A program made the translations under genes and the position numbers. A stretch of 15,845 nt of DNA from Planctomycetota bacterium (lineage in GTDB: Bacteria > Planctomycetota > UBA11346), in contig JBBQSO010000109.1 of the NCBI GenBank assembly GCA_038213805.1, positions 1 to 15,845 on the forward strand, given 5' to 3'. A model generated the notes under the pieces. That model searched no databases. It was not told the DNA's origin and worked only from the letters and a program-made list of their open reading frames with translations. Shown piece by piece: positions 3 to 15,845 of this stretch (its first letter is position 1; each line of letters starts with the position of its first letter).

Positions 3-743
3 TGGTTTCGCGACGATCCGGCCGCGCACCCGGCGGTCGATGCGGCCGAGCGCGCGCGCATCGCCGCGGGCCGGGTGGTCCATCCACCCGCAAGCGTTGG
101 TGGCCGGCGTCTGCTGGCGCTGCTCACCAACCGCTCCCTGCTGCTGCTCTGCCTGGTCTATGCGGCCAACGGCTACGGTTTCTACTTCCTGATCACCTGG
201 CTGCCCAAGTACCTCGAGAGCTTCCAGCACTTCTCGCCGCTCGAGCTCCAGCTCTACGCCGGCCTGCCGCTCCTGCTCAGCGTGCCTGCGGACCTCTTCG
301 GCGGGCGGCTCACCGATGCGCTGGCGCGGCGCTATGGCCTGCGCTGGGGGCGCGCGGCGGTGGGCGGCATCGGCTACCTCCTCGCCGGCGTCGCGGTGGT
401 CGGGTCGACCTGCTGCACCTCGCCGGTGGTGGCGGTGGTGCTGTTCTCGTGCGGGGCCGCGTGCTCGATGGCCACCCTGGGCGCCACCTGGTCGAGCTGC
501 ACCGCCATCGGCGGCGCGGCCACCGGCACGGTTGGGGCGGTGATGAACTCGGCGTCGCAGATCGGCGCGTTCTGCAGCCCGCCGGTGCTCGCCTTCCTGG
601 TCAAGCACTACGCTGACTGGAAGATGCCGATTTACGTCATCGGTGCGCTCTACGTGGTCGCCGCGGTCGCGTGGCTGTTCATCGACGCGCGCCCGGCGGC
701 GCCGGCGGATGGCGCGGCGGACGCGGCTGTGCGCGCGGACTGA
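3..743 (+). CDS. MFS transporter, probably anion:cation symporter (sugar-acid transporter-like) family; 5'-truncated by the window edge
   Basis: The frame is open from base 3 (WFRDDPAAHPAVDAAERARI, like the central loop of ACS-family MFS carriers). About six hydrophobic helices follow, with YGFYFLITWLPKYL and a motif-A-like GGRLTDALARRYG. Stop TGA at 741-743. Confidence 0.85.
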   Translation, partial: WFRDDPAAHPAVDAAERARIAAGRVVHPPASVGGRRLLALLTNRSLLLLCLVYAANGYGFYFLITWLPKYLESFQHFSPLELQLYAGLPLLLSVPADLFGGRLTDALARRYGLRWGRAAVGGIGYLLAGVAVVGSTCCTSPVVAVVLFSCGAACSMATLGATWSSCTAIGGAATGTVGAVMNSASQIGAFCSPPVLAFLVKHYADWKMPIYVIGALYVVAAVAWLFIDARPAAPADGAADAAVRAD

Positions 744-2396: not shown

Positions 2397-2726
2397 ATGA
2401 TCGTCACCACCACCAACGACCTCATCGGCTACGAGATCGCGGAATACAAGGGCATCGTGCGCGGCCTGATCGTGCGCTCGCCGACCATCGCCCAGGGCAT
2501 CCTTGGCGGCCTGAAGAACATCATCGGCGGCCGCATCGGTGCCTACATGGAGATGTGCGAGCAGGCCCGCCAGCAGGCCTACGACTCGATCGTCGAACAC
2601 GCCGAACAGGTCGGTGCCAACGCCATCCTCGGCTTCCGCTACGACGCCACCGAAGTCTCCAGCCAATCAGCGGCGACCGAGGTGCTGTGCTATGGGACGG
2701 CGGTGGTAGTGCGCAGGATCGGCTGA
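2397..2726 (+). CDS. ybjQ: YbjQ / UPF0145 family protein (putative heavy-metal-binding), 109 aa
   Basis: MIVTTTNDLIGYEIAEYKGIVRG...GGLKNIIGG...EQARQQA...GANAILGFRYD...EVLCYGTAV matches the YbjQ pattern. AGGAGG at 2387-2392 precedes ATG 2397. Confidence 0.9.
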   Translation: MIVTTTNDLIGYEIAEYKGIVRGLIVRSPTIAQGILGGLKNIIGGRIGAYMEMCEQARQQAYDSIVEHAEQVGANAILGFRYDATEVSSQSAATEVLCYGTAVVVRRIG

Positions 2727-2756
2727 GTCGGTGCGCCGATCAGGAGGACCGCGAGG

Positions 2757-2933
2757 GTGAACAAGTACCTCTGGCTCGCCGCCGCGCTGGAGATCATTGG
2801 GCTCATTGGCGTACTCGTGGTCGTCACGAGCCCTGATCGGCGGATCGCGGCCGCGATCGCGGGCTGTGACCGTGTTGAATTCGATCAGGGTTTCCCGAGT
2901 GGTACTGCTACCGATCACTGTGATCGGCGCTGA
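2757..2933 (+). CDS. Possible small membrane protein (58 aa), hypothetical
   Basis: AGGAGG at 2742-2747, then GTG at 2757. Translation MNKYLWLAAALEIIGLIGVLVVVTSPDRRIAAAIAGCDRVEFDQGFPSGTATDHCDRR has an N-terminal hydrophobic helix. Absent from the ORF track, probably because it is short. No family recognised. Confidence 0.4.
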   Translation: MNKYLWLAAALEIIGLIGVLVVVTSPDRRIAAAIAGCDRVEFDQGFPSGTATDHCDRR

Positions 2934-3013
2934 ATGCAGCGCCGTGATGTTCCGTTGAGCGTTTGCGCGTTTGGAGTCGGCAGCTCGCGGAACTGGCGCC
3001 CGGTCTCCGTCTG

Positions 3014-4453
3014 TCACCTCGCGATATCCAGCACCACATCATCAATCACCAGCGCCCCCGCGCGCGTCCGTCCCTGCGTTGCGAGCTGCGCCGCGAAGCC
3101 GACGAAGGCGAGTGGGTAGCGGATGAGGCCCTCGCGGCCGGGCGCCGCGTTCCAGTGCCAGAGCGGGTTCGGCGAAAGCGGGAAAATGACATGCCGCCAG
3201 CCGCGCCGGCCGGGCTCGGGCAGCGGCTGGCGCCATTCGAAGAACTGGCCGTCGGCGTCGCAGAAGCGCACCGCGACGTGCTGCACGTCGGCACCGTCGG
3301 CAGACCACATGTCCAGGGTGATCGTGGCGGCGGCGCTGGAGGTCAATTCTGCAAGCGGCGCCCGTCGCACGCGGTAGCTGCAGTCGATCCACACGCTGTG
3401 GTCGGCCGGCCACGAGAAGTCGAGCGCCTTGCCGCTGGCCGCCGCGTCGGGCGCCACAACCAGGTCGAGGCCGGGCAGCTTGTCGTGGTAGCCGTGGCCC
3501 TCGAGGCCCGACTCCGCGCGCTCGAAGTCGTCGAGGACCAGGCGCTGTCCCGGTGCTGCCGGCGGCGCGGTCGGCGCCGCCTTGGCCACGGGCGGGTCGA
3601 CGCGGGTGGCGAACGCGGCGGCGGCCAGCGCGCCAACGACCGCAGTGCCGAAGGCGAGCATGGCCGCGACCTTGGCCGCCTTCGCCGCATGAGCCATTTT
3701 CGCCAGGGACGACACCTTGCCCGCGGCCGGCAGCGCGCTGGCCAGCGGCAGTAGCGGCGCCGCCGGCAGTTGCAGCACGAAGGGCACGGCCAGTCCGGCG
3801 AGGGTGTTGTCGGGCAGTCGCTGCTCGTCCACGCCCAGCATCTCGCGCAGGCGCTTGAGCCCGCGGTGCACCTTCACGCGCGCGTGATTGACCGTGCACT
3901 TCAGATCGGTGGCGAGGTCGTCGTAGGACAGGCCGCCGACGAGGTGCAGCAGCACCGGGCGGCGGTAGGCCTCAGGCAGGATGCCGATCGCGGAGTGCAC
4001 GCGCGCGACCAGCAGCGCGCGCTCGGCAAGATCCTCGCTGCCGGTGCCCGGACTGGTTGGCGTGGTGGCAAGCGCGGTGCCGAGCGGCCCGCTGCTGGCG
4101 GATCCGGAAGCATCCATGTCGGTGTTCCTCGGCGCGGGTGGGGCGATGGCGGAGGCCTGGATCGACCGCCGCTTCCGTCCGTGATCGATGGCGGTGGTGT
4201 AGGCGACGCGCATCAGCCAGGCGCGCGCGCCGCGCTCGGGATCTTCGCCCGCGGGGCGGAAGGCGAGCGCGGCGCGCGGCAGACCCATCCAGAAGTCCTG
4301 GTAGGCGTCGTCGGTGTCGTGCGCATCGCGGCTGCGGGTGGCGATCATGCGCCAGATGTCGGGGCCGTGGCGCTCGACCAGCAGCGCCCAGGACGTGGCG
4401 GCCCCGGGCCCGGACAGGCCGGCGAGGGCCGCTGCGGTGGGGGACTGGCTCAT
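3014..4453 (-). CDS. ECF-type sigma-70 factor with C-terminal extension (TM helix plus CBM11-like / galactose-binding-like beta-sandwich)
   Basis: Sigma region 2: LVERHGPDIW...DTDDAYQDFW...RAWLMRVAYTTAIDHGRKRR. Region 4: LPEAYRRPVLLHLVGGLSYDDLA...KVHRGLKRLREML. Hydrophobic helix KVAAMLAFGTAVVGALAAAAFAT (~3605-3673). C-terminal domain LVLDDFE...GKAL...DADGQFF...GWRHVIFPL...GALVIDDV. Start placed at ATG 4453; the ORF-track start at 4645 would overlap the divergent gene. Confidence 0.88.
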   Translation of the reverse strand: MSQSPTAAALAGLSGPGAATSWALLVERHGPDIWRMIATRSRDAHDTDDAYQDFWMGLPRAALAFRPAGEDPERGARAWLMRVAYTTAIDHGRKRRSIQASAIAPPAPRNTDMDASGSASSGPLGTALATTPTSPGTGSEDLAERALLVARVHSAIGILPEAYRRPVLLHLVGGLSYDDLATDLKCTVNHARVKVHRGLKRLREMLGVDEQRLPDNTLAGLAVPFVLQLPAAPLLPLASALPAAGKVSSLAKMAHAAKAAKVAAMLAFGTAVVGALAAAAFATRVDPPVAKAAPTAPPAAPGQRLVLDDFERAESGLEGHGYHDKLPGLDLVVAPDAAASGKALDFSWPADHSVWIDCSYRVRRAPLAELTSSAAATITLDMWSADGADVQHVAVRFCDADGQFFEWRQPLPEPGRRGWRHVIFPLSPNPLWHWNAAPGREGLIRYPLAFVGFAAQLATQGRTRAGALVIDDVVLDIAR

Positions 4454-4461
4454 GCTGGAGC

Positions 4462-4490
4462 ATAAGCGCAGCCCGGCCGCGCGCATTACA
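4462..4490 (-). promoter_or_regulatory. Putative ECF-type promoter for the sigma gene (TGTAAT-N16-CGCTTAT)
   Basis: On the minus strand: TGTAAT (4490-4485), 16-nt spacer, CGCTTAT (4468-4462), 8 nt, then ATG 4453. No SD sequence is visible, consistent with a leaderless autoregulated transcript. A matching motif sits on the plus strand. Confidence 0.5.
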
Positions 4491-4500
4491 GCCGCGCGGG

Positions 4501-4529
4501 TGTAATGCCGATGGGGTATGATCGCTGAT
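4501..4529 (+). promoter_or_regulatory. Putative ECF-type promoter for the first DUF1592-DUF1552 operon (TGTAAT-N16-CGCTGAT)
   Basis: TGTAAT 4501-4506, 16-nt spacer, CGCTGAT 4523-4529, 9 nt, then ATG 4539, which is in frame with the DUF1592 ORF. Confidence 0.5.
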
Positions 4530-4625
4530 CTGGCAGACATGAGTCCCCACCTCCATCGATCGCTTCGCGACGGCCGTGCCGTCAGCTCTTGGGGGAGGTC
4601 GGGTATTTTTATACAAAATTCTGTT

Positions 4626-7052
4626 GTGCAGACGCTTGCGATCATCTTCCTAAACGTTTTCGCGATCTGTGCCCCGGCCAGCGACAGCGCTCCTGCAGGG
4701 CGGTCCTCGACCGGCCAGCCGGACGCCGCGGCCGCGGTCGCGCTGGCCTACGCCCAGCGCATCAAGCCGTTCCTGGCCACCTACTGCCTGGACTGCCACA
4801 ACGCGCAGAAGCACAAGGGCGACCTGGACCTGGGCGCGCTGGGCGGCGACCCGGCCGCCCTCACCCGCACCACCCTGTGGCGGGACTGCGCCACCAAGCT
4901 GCGCGCCAGCGACATGCCGCCCGAGAAGGCCAAGCAGCCCAGCGACGCCGAGCGCGACGCCTTCGCCACGTGGGTACGCAGCCTGAAGGCGCTGTGCCCG
5001 CCCGATCCCGGTCCCGGCATGATCCGCCGGCTGTCGCAGGTGGAGTACGCCAACACCCTGCACGATCTGCTGGGCGCCGATCCCAAGGTCGCCGCCAGCC
5101 TGCCGCAGGATGCGGTCGGCGAAGGTTTCAGCAGCGCGATCTCACCGCTGCTGATGGAGAAGTACCTGCTGGTCGCCGACGAGGTGCTCGACCGGCTGAT
5201 CACCCCCGACCAGCTCACGGTGGAGTGGCGCGCGGGGCAGCTCGATGCGGTGGTCGGCGGCCATCCGGATGCGGGCCGCGCCGATGGTGCGGAGCGCCGC
5301 TTCAGCGGCCCGGGCGAGATGACGGCGACCATCGCGGCGCCGGTCGCCGGCACCTATACCGTGCGCGTGCACGCGGCCGCCGAGAAGGTCGCCAGTGCTG
5401 AGGCCGCGCGCCTGGCGGTGCGCATCGACGGCCAGGTGGTCGGCGAGGTCAAGGTCACCGCCGCGCCCAAGGCGCCGGGCACGTACGTGGTGACCTGCAA
5501 GCTGCCGGTCGGCCGGGCGCGGCTGTCGCTGCTGATGGCGAATCCCTACGTCGATCCGCCGCTCGCACGCAAGCCTGCACTGCCGGGCAAGCCGGTGCCG
5601 ACGCCGCCGGCCAAGCCCGGTGCGAAACCGGCGGCCCCAGGGCCCGCCGCGCCGCCCGCCGACGCCGCGCCGGCGCTACGCACGGTGATCGTCGACAGCA
5701 TCGAAGTGACCGGCCCACCCGCCGCCGCACCGTCGGAAGCGCAGCGGCGGCTGTTCGTCGCCGTTCCGGGCAAGGATCTCAGCAAGCGCGAGGCGGCGCG
5801 GCGCATCGCCAGCGCCTTCGCGCGCCGCGCCTACCGCCGCCCTGCGGCGCCCGATGAGATCGAGACGCTGCTCAAGGTCTTCGATCTCGCCGACGGCCAG
5901 GACGAGGTCTTCGCGGAAGCGATCAAGCTGATGCTCAAGGCGACGCTGGTCTCGCCCGCCTTCCTCTACCTGACCCCGGATGACGGCTCGCTGGTCGGCG
6001 ACGACGGCGCCATCGTGGCGCTCGGCGACCACCAGCTGGCGTCGCGCCTGTCCTACCTGTTCTGGTCGACCATGCCCGACGACGAGCTGTCCGCCCTGGC
6101 CGACGCCCGCACCCTGCACCTGCCCGCGACCATCGCCGCGCAGGTGCGCAGGCTGATCGCCGACCCGCGTTCGCGCGCGCTGTTCGCAGGTTTCGGCGCG
6201 CCGTGGCTGGGTCTCGACAAGCTCCCGGATCTGGCCGTCGACGAGCAGCGCTTCCCGCTCATGACCCGCGCCATGCGCGAGGCGATGTACGAGGAGGGCG
6301 CCCTGGTGTTCGCCGCGATCCTGCGCGAGGACCGCAGCCTGGTCGAGTTCGTCGACTGCGACTTCACCTACCTCAATGCCACCCTGGCGCGCGTCTACGG
6401 GCTGGAGGGCACGGTGACCGGCGCGCAGATGAGCCGCGTGCACCTGACCGACGGCAACCGCGGCGGCGTGCTGACCATGCCGGGCGTGCTGGCCGTGACC
6501 TCGCTGCCGACGCGCACCAGCCCGCCGCGGCGCGGGCGCTGGGTGCTGGAGCAGATCCTTGGCCAGGCGCCGCCGCCGCCGCCCGCCGACGTGCCGCCGC
6601 TCGATCGTCAGGCGCAGGCGGGGGCGGGCGGCGCCGCGCTGTCGCTGCGCGCGCGCACCGAGCGCCACCGCTCCGACCCGGCGTGCAGCGGCTGCCACCG
6701 CACCCTCGACCCGATCGGCTTCGGCCTGGAGGGCTTCGACGCCATCGGACGCTGGCGCGAGCACGACGACGGCGGCGCTGCGCTCGACACCGCCGGCGTG
6801 CTGCCCGGCAACCTCGCCTTCCGCAGCCCGCAGGACCTCAAGCGCCTGATCGCCGCACGCCGCGACGACCTCTGCCGGACCCTGGTCGGCAAGATCCTCG
6901 CCTACACCCTGTGCCACCGCCTCGACGGCTACGACGAGGTGGTCGCCGACGGTCTCGCTGCAGAGGTGGCGCGCGGCGGCTACCACTTCCAGGACGTGTG
7001 GGTGCGCGTCGCGACCAGCTATCCGTTCCTCAACCGCCGCATCACCCGCTGA
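4626..7052 (+). CDS. Secreted planctomycete-type cytochrome c protein with DUF1587/DUF1595/DUF1592/DUF1588/DUF1585 domains (copy 1)
   Basis: Signal-like QTLAIIFLNVFAICAPA. CxxCH motifs CLDCH (4785-4799) and CSGCH (6684-6698). Family motifs IRRLSQVEYANTLHDLLG, FARRAYRRP, LASRLSYLFWSTMPDDEL, RGGVLTMPGVL..TS...RTSP, and DPIGFGLEGFDAIGRWR. The start is uncertain: GTG 4626, ATG 4539 or ATG 4518, all in frame. Confidence 0.9.
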   Translation: MQTLAIIFLNVFAICAPASDSAPAGRSSTGQPDAAAAVALAYAQRIKPFLATYCLDCHNAQKHKGDLDLGALGGDPAALTRTTLWRDCATKLRASDMPPEKAKQPSDAERDAFATWVRSLKALCPPDPGPGMIRRLSQVEYANTLHDLLGADPKVAASLPQDAVGEGFSSAISPLLMEKYLLVADEVLDRLITPDQLTVEWRAGQLDAVVGGHPDAGRADGAERRFSGPGEMTATIAAPVAGTYTVRVHAAAEKVASAEAARLAVRIDGQVVGEVKVTAAPKAPGTYVVTCKLPVGRARLSLLMANPYVDPPLARKPALPGKPVPTPPAKPGAKPAAPGPAAPPADAAPALRTVIVDSIEVTGPPAAAPSEAQRRLFVAVPGKDLSKREAARRIASAFARRAYRRPAAPDEIETLLKVFDLADGQDEVFAEAIKLMLKATLVSPAFLYLTPDDGSLVGDDGAIVALGDHQLASRLSYLFWSTMPDDELSALADARTLHLPATIAAQVRRLIADPRSRALFAGFGAPWLGLDKLPDLAVDEQRFPLMTRAMREAMYEEGALVFAAILREDRSLVEFVDCDFTYLNATLARVYGLEGTVTGAQMSRVHLTDGNRGGVLTMPGVLAVTSLPTRTSPPRRGRWVLEQILGQAPPPPPADVPPLDRQAQAGAGGAALSLRARTERHRSDPACSGCHRTLDPIGFGLEGFDAIGRWREHDDGGAALDTAGVLPGNLAFRSPQDLKRLIAARRDDLCRTLVGKILAYTLCHRLDGYDEVVADGLAAEVARGGYHFQDVWVRVATSYPFLNRRITR

Positions 7053-7064
7053 CCGGAGTCCGCT

Positions 7065-8498
7065 GTGCGCAGAAACTGGCTTATAGACCGCCGCACCTGC
7101 CTGAAGGGGCTGGGCGTCGCCCTCGCCCTGCCGCTGCTCGACGTCATGGGCTGGGCCGATCCGCCCGCCGGCGGCGCCGCCGGGAAACCGCCGGTGCGCC
7201 TGGGCTGGATGTTCATGCCGTGCGGGGTGAACATGAAGGAGTTCTGGCCGGCCGACCCGAAGGCCTATCCGGCGACGCTGCCGTCCAGCCTCGAGCCGCT
7301 GCGCCCGGTGATCGACCAGTGCCTGCTGCTCCAAGGTATCGACAACATCGACCGCGCGCCCTACGCGGGCGCCGCCCACGCCATCGAGCTGTCCACCTGG
7401 CTGACCGCGTCCATCCCCGACCCGGCGAAGCGCGACATCATCGCCATCGCGCCGTCGGCCGACCAGGTCGCCGCCCAGCACATCGGCATCTACACCGCGC
7501 TGCCCTCACTGGAACTCGGCACGCGCAAGAACGAGGCCAGCGGCACCGGCCAGGAGGGGCTGAACAACCGCTATTACACCACCGGCTCGTACCGCACCGC
7601 GAGCGAGCCGCTGCCGGTCGAGACGAGGCCCGCGGAGGTGATGAAGCGCCTGTTCGCGTCACGGCAATCGACCCCGCGCAAGCGTGGCGGGCCCGCGGTC
7701 GATGCCGGCCAGTTCGCCGGCGCAGCGCCGGCGAGCGATGGCGAATCGCTCGACCGCAGCATGCTCGATCTGGTCCTGGACGGTGCCAAGGGCTTGAAGG
7801 CGCGCGTCAGCCGCGACGACCAGCGCCAGCTTGACGAGTACCTCGACAGCGTGCGGTCGCTCGAGACCCGCGTCGCCGCGATCGAACGCCAGCAGGCCGA
7901 GGCCGCCCGCGCCCACACCGGCAAGGCCGACGCCGCGGCCGCCAGCGCGCGCTCGGCGCCGCTCGAGGTCGCCATCCCGCCCGGCGAGGTGAAATGGAGC
8001 GAGCACGTGCGCGTGCTCGGCGACCTGATGATCCTCGCCTTCCAGGCGGACATCACCCGCGTCGGCACGCTGATGGCGTCGATGAACCACGGCATCAACT
8101 ACCCCGAACTGGGCTTCAGCGACAGCCACCACGAGAACAGCCACCACGGCGAGGACCCGGTGAAGCTCGCCAAGGTCGCGAAGATCGACCGTTTCAACAT
8201 CGAGCAGTACGCCTACCTGATCGGGCGCATGCGCAGCCTGCGCGAGGGCGCGGGCACGCTGCTCGACAACACCATCTTCACCTGGGGCTCCGGGCTGGGC
8301 GACGGCAACAACCACACCAACCGCTCCATCCCCACCATCGTCGCCGGGCGCGGCGGCGGCACCATCCGCACCGGCCGCCATGTGCCCAAGTGCAACGGCA
8401 ACCAGGGCGACCTGCTCACCGCCATCCTGGCACGCGCAGGCGTGCCGCTAGCCAAGCCGATCGGCAATGGGACGAAGCTGTTGCCGGATTTATCGTGA
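7065..8498 (+). CDS. DUF1552 (HXXSHH) family protein, copy 1, with twin-arginine-like N-terminus
   Basis: IDRRTCLKGLGVALALPLL, SADQVAA, LPSLELG, LDEYLDSVRSLE, LAFQADITRV, HHENSHH (8127-8147), GTLLDNT and GDGNNH. GGAG RBS; starts 12 nt after the DUF1592 stop, the usual pairing. Confidence 0.92.
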   Translation: MRRNWLIDRRTCLKGLGVALALPLLDVMGWADPPAGGAAGKPPVRLGWMFMPCGVNMKEFWPADPKAYPATLPSSLEPLRPVIDQCLLLQGIDNIDRAPYAGAAHAIELSTWLTASIPDPAKRDIIAIAPSADQVAAQHIGIYTALPSLELGTRKNEASGTGQEGLNNRYYTTGSYRTASEPLPVETRPAEVMKRLFASRQSTPRKRGGPAVDAGQFAGAAPASDGESLDRSMLDLVLDGAKGLKARVSRDDQRQLDEYLDSVRSLETRVAAIERQQAEAARAHTGKADAAAASARSAPLEVAIPPGEVKWSEHVRVLGDLMILAFQADITRVGTLMASMNHGINYPELGFSDSHHENSHHGEDPVKLAKVAKIDRFNIEQYAYLIGRMRSLREGAGTLLDNTIFTWGSGLGDGNNHTNRSIPTIVAGRGGGTIRTGRHVPKCNGNQGDLLTAILARAGVPLAKPIGNGTKLLPDLS

Positions 8499-11726: not shown

Positions 11727-12133
11727 GAGGCTCCCCAGACGTCCAGGATCACGGGCCCGCGCCCCGAGTCCACCGCTTGGGCCCGTGCGCAGGGCACATC
11801 TCCCGCGACGCAGGTCTCTGCGCTGCAAGGTCTGCCCACCTGTATCGAGGGGTGAGGGGAAGGTTTAAAGCGGGTGATCACTTCCATGTCCCGCACGTGC
11901 CTGAACCACGCAGCCTCCTCAGTGCTTGCCCAGGTGACATGGAACGTCGGGTCCGTCATTGTCTCAATTAAGCGAATCCTGCCCTGACTGGGTGGCCATG
12001 CGATCAGGCATTGCTATGCATCAGTCATTTTCACCGGTATCTGATGCGCGGTGAGGTCTCGTCGGAAATGCCAGAACAGGTTCAGGTCCATCGGGTAAAA
12101 GAGAGTGTGCCCCGTAGTTCTCCAAGGATCCCG

Positions 12134-14458
12134 ATGCGCGTCCCGTGGTTCGCCGCCCTGGCCCTGCTCCTGCCCGCGCTCTGCCCGGGCGCCGATCAGC
12201 CGGCATTCATGAAGGACGTCCATCCCCTGCTGGAGCACTACTGTTTCAAGTGCCACGGCGCCGAGAAGCATAAGGGCGACCTGGACCTGAGCACCTTCAC
12301 CAGCGAGGACGCGGCTCTGCACGGCGCGCGCACCTGGCGCACGGTGCGCGCCAAGCTCGATGAGAAGGAGATGCCACCGGAGAAGTCACCGCAGCCGACC
12401 GCCGCCGAGCTCGCCACCATGAGCGCCTGGCTGGCCACGGTGAAACGGCCGCCGGGACCGCCCGACCCGGGCCGCGTCACCATCCGCCGCCTCAACCGCA
12501 GCGAGTACGACAACACCATCCGCGACCTCATCGGGCTGGACCTCAAGCCGGCCGAGGGCTTCCCCTCCGACGACGTCGGCGAGGGTTTCGACAACATCGG
12601 CGACGCGCTGTCGCTGCCGCCACTGCTGCTCGAGAAGTACGTCGATTCCGCCATCGCCATCCTCGACAAGGCCATCGTCCACGAGGGCGTCGATCTGCAC
12701 GCCACCGGCGAGCAGCTGCCCGGCACCGCCGACGGCAAGCCGCTGACGCCCAAGAGCGATGGCCAGGCGCGCACCCTGAATGGCGCCGGCGAGCTGTGGC
12801 TGGACGTCAGCGTGCCGGCCGACGGCCGCTTCCAGCTGCGCGCCAAAGTCGGCGCCGATGCCGGCGGCGGCGATCCGGTGGTGTTGGCGATCAGCGTCGA
12901 TGGCGAAGCGCCCAAGGACTTCCGCATCAGCGCCAAGGCGGGCGCACCCGCCAGCCTGGGCGAGACCGTGCCCCTGACCAAGGGCGCGCACCGCTTCGCG
13001 CTGCGCTTCGCCAACCCGGTCAGCCAGCCGCCCAAGAAGCCCGCCGCCGCCAGCGCGGCCAGCGCCGCGGCCCAGGCCAAGGCCGACAAGCCGGTCGGCC
13101 CGCGCTCGCTGGTCATTGAGTCGGTCGAGCTCAAGGGTCCACCCGGCCCGCCCATCCCCGAGAGCCACAAGCGCATCTTCATCGCCAAGCCGGGTCCGGG
13201 CGTCAGCCGCCAGGATGCGGCACGCACCATCATCGGGGCCTTCGCCACGCGCGCCTTCCGCCGCCCGGTGGAAGCCGACAAGCTCGACCGCCTGCTGCAC
13301 ATCGTCGAACTCGCCGACCAGCAGGGCGAGGTCTTCGAAGACGCCATCGGCTACGGCCTGCAGGCGGTGCTGGTCTCGCCGGAATTCCTGTTCCGCGTCG
13401 AACGCGACCGCGCGCCGACCGAGCCCAACAACGCCTACGCGCTCGACGATTGGGAGCTGGCCTCGCGCCTGTCCTACTTCCTGTGGTCGACGATGCCCGA
13501 CGACGCGCTCTTCGCGCTGGCGAAGCAGGGCACGCTGCATGATCCGAAAGTGATCGAGCAGCAGGCGCGGCGCATGCTGAAGGACCCCAAAGCGCACGCC
13601 CTGACCGAGACCTTTGGCGAACAGTGGCTGCAGCTGCGCAGCCTGGAGACGCGCCAGCCCGATCCCAAGGCCTTCCCGGATTACGACAAGCCGCTGCGCA
13701 AGGCGATGTACGACGAGGCCGCGCTGTTCTTCGAGAACGTCGTGCACGAGGATCGCAGCGTCCTGGAATTCCTCGACGCCGACTACACCTTCCTCAACGA
13801 CCGCCTGGCCAGGCACTACGGCATCGCCAACGTCGACGGGCCGCAGTTCCGCAAGGTCCAGCTCAAGGACCACGTGCGCGGTGGCGTGCTGACCATGGCC
13901 GGCATCCTGACGCTGACCTCCAACCCGACGCGCACCAGCCCGGTCAAGCGCGGCAAGTGGATCCTTGAGGAGATCGTCAACCAGCCGCCGCCGCCGCCGC
14001 CGCCCGCGGTCGGCGAGCTGCCGCAGCAGGGTACCGGCGCGACCACCGGGCTGAGCCTGCGCCAGCTGATGGAGCGCCACCGCGCCGACGCGGTGTGCGC
14101 CTCGTGCCACCAGCGCATGGACCCGCTCGGCTTCGGTCTGGAGAACTACGACGCCATCGGGCGCTGGCGCGGCGACGTCGACGGCAAGGCGCTCGACGTC
14201 GCGGGCACGCTGCCTGGCGGCCGCACCTTCAACGGCCCGGTCGAGCTCAAAGCGCTGTTCATGGCGCGCAAAGAGGACTTCGCGCGCTGCCTGGCCAGCA
14301 AGCTGCTGACCTTCGCCCTGGGCCGTGGCCTCAAGGACGACGACGACATGACGGTCGAGGACGCCAGCGCCGCGCTGGCCCGCGACCAGTACCGCTTCTC
14401 GACGCTGGTCGCCCAGGTGGTCACCAGCTATCCCTTCCGCTACCGCCGCGCGCCGTAG
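12134..14458 (+). CDS. Secreted planctomycete-type cytochrome c protein with DUF1587/DUF1595/DUF1592/DUF1588/DUF1585 domains (copy 2)
   Basis: AAGGA RBS, then MRVPWFAALALLLPALCPGA signal peptide. CFKCH (12242-12256) and CASCH (14096-14110). Motifs IRRLNRSEYDNTIRDL, GFDNIG, LASRLSYFLWSTMPDD, RTSPVKRGKWIL and GFGLENYDAIGRWR. Confidence 0.93.
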   Translation: MRVPWFAALALLLPALCPGADQPAFMKDVHPLLEHYCFKCHGAEKHKGDLDLSTFTSEDAALHGARTWRTVRAKLDEKEMPPEKSPQPTAAELATMSAWLATVKRPPGPPDPGRVTIRRLNRSEYDNTIRDLIGLDLKPAEGFPSDDVGEGFDNIGDALSLPPLLLEKYVDSAIAILDKAIVHEGVDLHATGEQLPGTADGKPLTPKSDGQARTLNGAGELWLDVSVPADGRFQLRAKVGADAGGGDPVVLAISVDGEAPKDFRISAKAGAPASLGETVPLTKGAHRFALRFANPVSQPPKKPAAASAASAAAQAKADKPVGPRSLVIESVELKGPPGPPIPESHKRIFIAKPGPGVSRQDAARTIIGAFATRAFRRPVEADKLDRLLHIVELADQQGEVFEDAIGYGLQAVLVSPEFLFRVERDRAPTEPNNAYALDDWELASRLSYFLWSTMPDDALFALAKQGTLHDPKVIEQQARRMLKDPKAHALTETFGEQWLQLRSLETRQPDPKAFPDYDKPLRKAMYDEAALFFENVVHEDRSVLEFLDADYTFLNDRLARHYGIANVDGPQFRKVQLKDHVRGGVLTMAGILTLTSNPTRTSPVKRGKWILEEIVNQPPPPPPPAVGELPQQGTGATTGLSLRQLMERHRADAVCASCHQRMDPLGFGLENYDAIGRWRGDVDGKALDVAGTLPGGRTFNGPVELKALFMARKEDFARCLASKLLTFALGRGLKDDDDMTVEDASAALARDQYRFSTLVAQVVTSYPFRYRRAP

Positions 14459-14484
14459 CCCGCATCCCATTACGGAGCATCGTC

Positions 14485-15845
14485 ATGAGCAAGAACTGGC
14501 TGATCCCGCGCCGCACCGCCCTCAAGGGCGTCGGCGTGGCCATGGCGCTGCCGCTGCTGGAGGCGATGGGCTGGGCCGACGAGCCCAAGGGCGGGAAATC
14601 CGGCGCTTTCCGCGCGCCGGTGCGCAGCGCGTTCCTGATGATCGCCAACGGCGTCAACCAGGACGAGTGGAAGCCCAAGCCGGGCGCCACCGGCCTGCCG
14701 CGCATCCTGGTGCCGCTGGCGCCGGTGATGAAGAGCGTGCTGGTGATCAACAACCTGCGCCACGACAAGGCGCGCGGCAACGGCGACGGCGCCGGCGACC
14801 ACGCGCGCGAATCCAGCACCTTCCTGACCGGCGCGCAGTGCCGCAAGACCTCGGCCGCCGACATCCAGTCCGGCGTGTCGATCGACCAGAAGCTCGCCGA
14901 GAAGCTCGGCGCCTTCACCTCGCTGCCCTCGCTCGAGCTCGGCACGGAACGCGGCGGCACCGCCGGCAACTGCGATTCCGGCTACAGCTGCGCCTATTCG
15001 TCGAACATGTCGTGGCGCACGCCGAACACGCCGATGGGCAAGGAGGTCGATCCCAAGGCGGTATTTACGCGCATGTTCGCGGCGCGCACCTCGTCGCCGC
15101 CCAAGCGCCAGGCCGGGCCGCGCGTCGACGTGGGCGCCTTCGCCAGCGGCAAGGGCGAGGCCGAGGCGCCGTCCCTGCAGCGCAGCATCCTCGACCTGGT
15201 GATGGACGACGCCAAGGGTCTGCGCGGCGCGGTCGGCCTGAGCGATCAGCGCAAGATGGACGAGTACCTCGATGCGGTGCGCGCGCTTGAGAAGCGCATC
15301 GAGCACGCCGACCGCGACGCCGCCGAGGCGGCCAAGGCCAAGGACGAGAAGAAGCCCGGCACCTACTCGCCGGTGATCGCGGTCGCGCAGCCGTCGGGCA
15401 TCCCGCCCAAGTACGCTGACCACGTCAAGCTGATGTTCGACCTTGTCACGCTCGCATTCCAGACCGACATCACGCGCGTGGTCACTTTCATGTTCGGCAA
15501 CGGCGGCTCGAACCGCAGCTACCCAGAACTGGGCGTGATGGGCGCGCACCACGAGATCTCGCACCACGCCAAGGACCCGGTCAAGCTCGAGGGCATCGCC
15601 AAGATCAACACCCACCACATCGAGCTGTTCTCGTACCTGCTGCAGAAGATGCAGGCCATCAATGACGGCAAGGGCACGCTGCTCGACAACAGCCAGCTGA
15701 TGTACGGCTCGGCGATCGGCGACGGCGATCGTCACAACCACGACGACCTGCCGGTGCTGCTCGCCGGCAAGGCGGGCGGCACCATCGCCAGCGGCCGCAC
15801 CCTGAATGCCAAGGGCAACATGTGCGATCTGTTCCTGGGCATGGC
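14485..15845 (+). CDS. DUF1552 (HXXSHH) family protein, copy 2; 3'-truncated by the window edge
   Basis: Missing from the ORF track because it has no stop in the window; translated by hand. GGAG RBS, then MSKNWLIPRRTALKGVGVAMALPLLEAM...GDHAR...SIDQKLA...LPSLELG...CDSGYSCAY (14971-14997)...LAFQTDITRV...HHEISHH (15547-15567)...GTLLDNS...GDGDRHNHDDLP. Confidence 0.92.
   Translation, partial: MSKNWLIPRRTALKGVGVAMALPLLEAMGWADEPKGGKSGAFRAPVRSAFLMIANGVNQDEWKPKPGATGLPRILVPLAPVMKSVLVINNLRHDKARGNGDGAGDHARESSTFLTGAQCRKTSAADIQSGVSIDQKLAEKLGAFTSLPSLELGTERGGTAGNCDSGYSCAYSSNMSWRTPNTPMGKEVDPKAVFTRMFAARTSSPPKRQAGPRVDVGAFASGKGEAEAPSLQRSILDLVMDDAKGLRGAVGLSDQRKMDEYLDAVRALEKRIEHADRDAAEAAKAKDEKKPGTYSPVIAVAQPSGIPPKYADHVKLMFDLVTLAFQTDITRVVTFMFGNGGSNRSYPELGVMGAHHEISHHAKDPVKLEGIAKINTHHIELFSYLLQKMQAINDGKGTLLDNSQLMYGSAIGDGDRHNHDDLPVLLAGKAGGTIASGRTLNAKGNMCDLFLGM

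Follow-up and report, generated by a model that had tools for sequence, protein, structure and literature searches.

About half of ECF sigma factors autoregulate (PMC7776599), and boxes of the AAC and CGT types are typical of ECF promoters (PMC8103513). Some sigma factors are fused to membrane proteins and are freed by proteolysis, a route that is shown for IutY (ECF243) of Pseudomonas putida and supported for SCO4117 (ECF52) of Streptomyces (PMC8999054). In both, the sigma factor forms one protein with a membrane segment and a domain outside; the parts of SCO4117 include a proline-rich stretch as well as a carbohydrate-binding domain. In Planctomycetota, the ECF57 factors consist of sigma2 and sigma4 with two conserved cysteines (PMC8999054, section 3.5.2) and a long fused C-terminal extension, which is often WD40-like. 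Here we describe a sigma factor with likenesses to each of these. It is encoded in a planctomycete genome of 5.5 Mb and 69% GC, within a 15,845-nt stretch of DNA that was analysed as a whole and is called the window below. As in SCO4117 and IutY, the sigma part is joined to a predicted membrane segment and outside domain; as in ECF57, the protein belongs to the Planctomycetota, is extended at its C-terminus and carries a cysteine in sigma4. A bipartite motif of fixed spacing stands before the sigma gene and before the neighbouring DUF1592-DUF1552 operon, the arrangement of autoregulatory ECF promoters and their target operons. Judged from sequence, this promoter pair is real, conserved and ordinary in kind.

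Results

Domain organisation of the sigma factor

The 479-aa protein is a Planctomycetota ECF sigma factor (group 4) with sigma2 and sigma4, no sigma3 and a short linker (Table 1). Sigma70_r2 and r4_2 were its only Pfam domains, TIGR02937 was above cutoff, and the sigma model aligned to SigW, CnrH and RpoE at Z 13-14. The AlphaFold model, made from 37 homologs, had a mean pLDDT of 78.8, with values under 50 at residues 104-136 (the linker) and 239-291. Model comparison matched the C-terminal beta-sandwich to CBM11, the CBM-like domain of an exo-agarase, CBM30 and others. The match to 6r31_A (CBM11; Z 13.3, rmsd 3.1, 157 aligned) was tied with non-CBM sandwiches, FlaA1 and a complex I assembly factor, and the Atlas clusters matched by the domain were CBM27, CBM11 and CBM30 at 0.92-0.93. 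Pfam CBM_11 did not match the window protein at E 0.1; a relative, P0057, scored 14.5 bits on it (cutoff 27). Between sigma4 and the hydrophobic segment there was no Cys/His motif, and no zinc-finger (ZAS) Pfam match was obtained. No conserved downstream gene for a candidate anti-sigma factor was seen, and the neighbours vary among the relatives. An MFS transporter gene (window 75-743) lies near the sigma gene and also adjoins the ortholog in one relative (L003); it possibly encodes an uptake partner. In another protein, P0060 (567 aa), the same CBM-like domain lies behind a degenerate sigma-like and anti-sigma-like N-terminus.

Table 1. Positions in the window of the promoter elements, the sigma gene with its domains and candidate internal start, and the predicted target operon
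Feature	Position	Strand	Basis or remark
-35 box TGTAATGC, sigma gene's own promoter (predicted)	4483..4490	-	pattern match and ortholog conservation
-10 heptamer CGCTTAT	4462..4468	-	14 nt past -35; 8 nt to ATG 4453
Gap separating the -35 boxes, 10 nt	4491..4500	.	length not conserved
-35 box TGTAATGC, DUF1592-DUF1552 promoter (predicted)	4501..4508	+	pattern match and ortholog conservation
-10 heptamer CGCTGAT	4523..4529	+	14 nt past -35; 9 nt to ATG 4539
ECF sigma gene, 479 aa (sigma2, sigma4, hydrophobic segment, CBM-like domain)	3014..4453	-	
Sigma2 domain, residues 25-96, no cysteine	4166..4381	-	Pfam Sigma70_r2
Candidate internal start: SD-like box GAGGA (4130-4126), 8 nt, in-frame ATG 4117-4115 (Met113)	4115..4130	-	
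Sigma4 domain, residues 151-202, recognition helix TVNHARVKVHRG, near-invariant Cys186	3848..4003	-	Pfam r4_2
Hydrophobic segment, residues ~263-283, Ala-rich, probable single membrane anchor	3605..3667	-	read from sequence
Beta-sandwich domain like CBM11/CBM30/CBM27, residues 301-479, probable periplasmic sensor	3017..3553	-	model
DUF1592-type protein (CxxCH cytochrome domain, PSD3, PSD5, PSD4, PSCyt3, PSD2), predicted first target	4539..7052	+	
DUF1552 (HXXSHH) protein, second gene of the operon	7065..8498	+	12 nt downstream, own GGAG box

An outward-facing promoter pair

The preliminary description of this DNA reported two outward copies of TGTAATGC-N14-CGCT(T/G)AT, 10 nt apart, each followed after 8-9 nt by an in-frame ATG. 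Both copies and both distances were recovered, ATG 4453 opening the sigma frame and ATG 4539 the DUF1592 frame. The -35 boxes lie in a 26-bp near-palindrome (4483-4508) in which the 10-nt gap is nearly self-complementary too; the 10-nt gap of the closest relative is less symmetric. A genome-wide scan, as that description had proposed, matched the strict pattern at two sites in the 5.5-Mb genome, both in the window, and two looser patterns, down to TGTAA-N17-CGCT.A, still matched only these sites. When up to two mismatches were allowed, the window held two matches against a mean of 0.03 in shuffled sequence, and none of 200 shuffles reached two. Since the pattern was built from the tested sites, conservation in orthologs is a stronger test than this estimate of chance. 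A likeness between the two sides had also been noted past the ATGs. It is best read as coincidence, the divergent side not being kept in the closest relative. Neither a sigma70 promoter nor a terminator was found in 2600-4900. An AT-rich stretch at window 4600-4665, where the N-terminal part of DUF1592 copy 1 is encoded, is missing from the closest relative, and no sigma70 promoter was called there.

Conservation of the promoters

Full-length orthologs were gathered by genome searches and two collection scans. Loci found repeatedly (L053-L057) were counted once, near-identical loci were merged for the promoter comparison (L037, L038 and L040 with L054; L043 and L044 with L039), and L007 and L046 were dropped since they start at a contig edge. 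This left 12 distinct ortholog loci with the window counted in; they are kin, and hence not independent. A GTAA(T/C) -35 box precedes the sigma start at a matching distance in all 12, so the motif does stand upstream of homologous ECF genes, the check proposed earlier. The second, outward-facing copy is present in 10 of the 12. It is absent in L045, where the upstream gene lies on the same strand, and in L034, and the -10 boxes of these two loci deviate (TGT and CGA, respectively).

The promoters of the 10 loci picked for having both copies were aligned (20 promoters). The G, A and A of GTAA and the CG of the -10 box were invariant in this alignment, the -35 to -10 distance was 14 nt in 19 promoters, and the spacers varied, which agrees with the earlier remark that the similarity is confined to the -35 and -10 blocks. 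One divergent -35 box, in L036, reads TGAAAC. An in-frame ATG lies 6-9 nt past the -10 heptamer in 16 of the 20, and from each of the seven divergent ATGs that were tested the frame runs without a stop into DUF1587. Nine of the ten two-promoter loci have a DUF1592-type gene on the divergent side (L054 was judged by sequence). In L042 the divergent gene encodes a GH28 hydrolase, yet both motifs are present, which indicates that the motif goes with the sigma gene and not with DUF1592. The GH28 gene (L042:2100-3734) stands in the place of DUF1592, and the promoter-proximal ATG there opens just a short frame.

The distance between the two -35 boxes varies widely. It is 10 nt in the window and in L053, 38 nt in L042, 86 nt in L036, 88 nt in L041, 90 nt in L054, 141 nt in L056, 143 nt in L039, 154 nt in L057 and 260 nt in L055. 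Eight of the ten two-promoter loci thus have gaps of 38-260 nt, and among the 114 loci searched the 10-nt gap was confined to the window genome and its closest relative.

In ECF promoters, the -10 heptamer is taken to end at -7. With this geometry, we infer transcription starts near 4455 on the minus strand, 2 nt before the ATG, and near 4536 on the plus strand, 3 nt before ATG 4539; the corresponding leaders are 0-3 nt. The boxes are most likely ECF-type target promoters of the adjacent sigma factor, facing outward and giving near-leaderless transcripts. The earlier view of a motif belonging to this sigma factor, with possibly leaderless transcription in both directions, is thus favoured by conservation, linkage to the sigma gene and ATG spacing. 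Its further element, competition between polymerases as part of the design, was not supported and is taken up in the Discussion. Our literature search returned nothing on leaderless ECF promoters in planctomycetes; published surveys of planctomycete ECF factors may already give the motif of this group.

A regulon that appears local

A loose version of the pattern gave 85 matches in the genome against 160 for a reversed control, and a refined version gave 9 against 8, with no excess in 10 relatives. Since these counts are not above control, the regulon looks local, and no wider regulon past the promoter pair was seen in them. When the 27 DUF1592 genes of the genome were compared by eye with the lists of pattern matches, none of the others had the motif just upstream. 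The window itself holds a second DUF1592-DUF1552 pair (12011-15741), which has no motif upstream and whose start is probably ATG 12135, not TTG 12011. An outward TTACA..TGTAA pair on contig C84 (L073:695-720) was considered as a second instance of the promoter pair and rejected, there being no CG box at the right spacing. This pair and another at C55:14224-14248 are intergenic and without a CG box at 14 nt; they are possibly operators of other regulators. We found no paper that covers DUF1592 and DUF1552 together.

A candidate internal start in the sigma2-sigma4 linker

The linker of the window sigma contains an SD-like box followed by an in-frame ATG (Table 1), and the predicted product from Met113 is a 367-aa protein without sigma2. 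We aligned the window protein with 36 of its 44 matches, excluding eight as duplicate, partial or having another C-terminus. The linker position was Met in 31 and Val in 6 of these 37 proteins, and in none was it Leu or Ile. At the DNA level, the linker ATG is in frame in 12 of the 13 distinct loci, L042 being the exception, and 10 of the 13 have an SD 4-mer (GGAG, GAGG or AGGA) 4-9 nt upstream of it. L043/L044 have AAGGGA and L036 a weaker box, neither containing a full 4-mer. The linker SD falls differently across the codons from locus to locus (AGG-A, GGA-G and GAG-G). As a control we took 20 of the genome's 51 sigma2 matches, all short plus-strand ECFs, with a 135-nt linker each; none of these had an SD with an in-frame ATG, and three had one with GTG. 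The linker Met is also where one gene in the database, P0053 (from a contig of 1,386 nt), has been called to start, a weak indication in favour of an internal start. Together, the conserved linker SD and ATG suggest that a sigma2-less isoform may be made.

Codon usage bears on whether the box is there by chance. The box of the window gene uses AGG, which by hand count makes up just 2 of its 38 Arg codons; for the linker boxes of relatives, AGG is 4/43 in one and GGA 4 of 40 Gly codons in another. A third ortholog gene has nine in-frame GGA codons, which leaves the argument from rare codons a moderate one. Around the internal site, the mRNA was predicted to fold slightly less stably than its shuffles (z +1.0 to +1.2), a difference that is not significant. 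The linker Met is lacking in P0048-P0050 and P0058, and by eye just 9 of 25 distant relatives show it, so that it cannot be called general. A search of 48 genomes yielded no DNA for the Val-bearing subgroup. A linker start is clear in one of the five long-extension ECFs of the genome: the paralogous long ECF on C45 has GAGGAGG, 8 nt and an ATG in its linker (L068:1859-1874, minus strand).

Further starts may exist downstream. In a subgroup (L085:1282-1294; P0032-P0041, P0047 and P0053), a second SD and start are followed by a signal-like peptide that adjoins the CBM-like domain on its N-terminal side, and could give a free secreted form of that domain. One relative has stand-alone genes for the CBM-like domain (L086:507-1140 and L087), the former with a strong SD and a signal-like N-terminus. 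The subgroup start and the stand-alone secreted copies fit the capture of extensions from neighbouring genes (PMC7671368). More than half of P0061-P0105, by eye, carry GG-x-x-x-M after sigma4 and before the hydrophobic segment. This motif is, as we read it, the protein trace of a putative internal start giving a sigma-less protein.

Discussion

We propose that both promoters would be read by RNA polymerase carrying the ECF sigma factor encoded next to them, one promoter feeding back positively on the sigma gene itself and the other driving the DUF1592-DUF1552 operon, both with nearly leaderless mRNAs. The single hydrophobic segment would tether the sigma factor at the inner membrane, with the carbohydrate-binding-type domain outside. 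Glycan bound there would, probably through proteolysis, free the sigma2-sigma4 part, which would then amplify its own synthesis and turn on DUF1592-DUF1552. A polysaccharide signal would be in keeping with the GH28 gene next to the sigma gene in L042. The mirror look of the window pair would be incidental, having arisen when the intervening DNA of two copies of the same promoter was lost and the distance shrank to 10 nt in this lineage. We put the probability of this account as a whole, from the self-reading sigma factor to the incidental mirror, at about 0.75.

Other explanations concern the layout of the pair and the identity of the sigma factor. Two polymerases competing for adjacent -35 boxes, as the preliminary description had it, would make the back-to-back layout a selected switch that balances autoregulation against operon output. 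Some 81 nt separate the predicted transcription starts, a distance that borders on the -80 limit for calling tail-to-tail overlap, interference is known at lambda PR/PRM (both PMC3167631), and the closest relative keeps the 10-nt gap. With gaps of 10-260 nt, however, most orthologs work without tight spacing, which makes competition incidental and a selected switch improbable; mild interference at the window pair is possible but cannot be needed across the family. The near-perfect inverted repeat of the window, gap included, would also suit the operator of a dimeric transcription factor, with the -10-like boxes incidental. Against an operator, the half-sites are 38-260 nt apart in eight of ten loci, every half-site retains a CG box of its own at 14 nt on the downstream side, and among the 114 loci searched the 10-nt form is limited to the window genome and its closest relative; we regard an operator as very improbable. 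Finally, an ECF encoded elsewhere could read both promoters, the adjacent sigma gene being merely a target. The genome has 51 sigma2 matches, and a stand-alone ECF on contig C31 (L075) has TGTAACCG-N15-CGTTATC upstream of its own gene, so cross-reading is possible. A tethered sigma factor would, moreover, need basal transcription, and the region 2600-4900 lacks a recognisable sigma70-type promoter. The recognition helix of the C31 sigma factor nevertheless differs from that of the window sigma, genome-wide counts at control level are unlike a shared regulon, and the motif accompanies the sigma family over loci of ~40-88% identity with differing neighbours. We therefore consider a foreign sigma factor unlikely, and favour the adjacent one as the reader of both promoters.

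The linker start is a separate matter. One frame may encode both the full tethered ECF and an SD-led brake made up of sigma4, membrane segment and CBM-like domain, with a third start in the subgroup giving a free secreted CBM-like domain; we hold this proposal tentatively, at somewhat less than an even chance. The predicted short form would compete for signal and protease, and a released lone sigma4 would occupy the polymerase flap or the TGTAATG boxes, unable to melt DNA. When sigma2 and sigma4 were separated in an ordinary ECF, they were inactive (10.1101/534826); a sigma2-less form would thus more likely inhibit than activate. [quoted passage not shown] This speaks for another explanation, in which the Met is kept for protein function in the sigma3.2 finger, the purines are chance codons and no short isoform exists. 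It is also favoured by the proteins without the Met (L042, P0048-P0050), by the missing SD 4-mers of L036 and L043/L044, and by GGA not being rare in the ortholog gene with nine such codons. It has to accommodate a position that is Met or Val only in 37 of 37 proteins amid low conservation and pLDDT under 50, an SD spelled in different registers, and control linkers that combine SD and in-frame ATG in 0 of 20 cases. We give this protein-function explanation close to an even chance. Our literature search found nothing on an internal start in an ECF gene.

On its own, the promoter pair is textbook ECF biology. It ties one of the 27 DUF1592 loci of the genome to a specific regulator with a predicted glycan-type sensor, and thereby offers a handle on an unexplained planctomycete gene family: if the inducer is found, the job of the operon follows. 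The GH28 replacement in L042 points to polysaccharide use. An internal start, if true, would add to ECF control a mode that our literature search did not turn up, in which a sigma gene encodes its own sigma4-only decoy, and the locus would be a self-contained system of sigma, decoy and sensor that places a DUF1592-DUF1552 operon under glycan control.

In its predicted mode of action, the window sigma resembles the ECF57 design of planctomycetes and also ECF52. Unlike in ECF57, its sigma2 has no cysteine, so the two-cysteine hallmark is missing, and its extension is a CBM-like sandwich in place of WD40-like repeats. Unlike SCO4117 and IutY, it comes from a different phylum and has no anti-sigma domain of the zinc-finger kind in the stretch from sigma4 to the membrane segment, the position at which the fused sigma-anti-sigma proteins of ECF48, ECF52 and ECF53 have a ZAS. 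With no cysteine in sigma2 and no zinc-finger, we file it in neither ECF57 nor ECF52. Its promoters differ from the usual AAC/CGT type in having GTAAT at -35 and CG(C/T) at -10, and its regulon apparently consists of two promoters. The pair resembles the tail-to-tail lambda PR/PRM promoters in facing outward, in its closely spaced -35 regions and in possible interference; unlike lambda, it has a predicted single sigma factor for both promoters, no evident repressor and a spacing that is not conserved. SigO-RsoA illustrates that sigma4 can exist apart from sigma2, as it would in the candidate short form, and sigmaR that one ECF gene can have two starts, the alternative one being earlier. Unlike in either, a single frame here would give a full sigma factor and, from an internal start, a form made up of sigma4, membrane segment and sensor.
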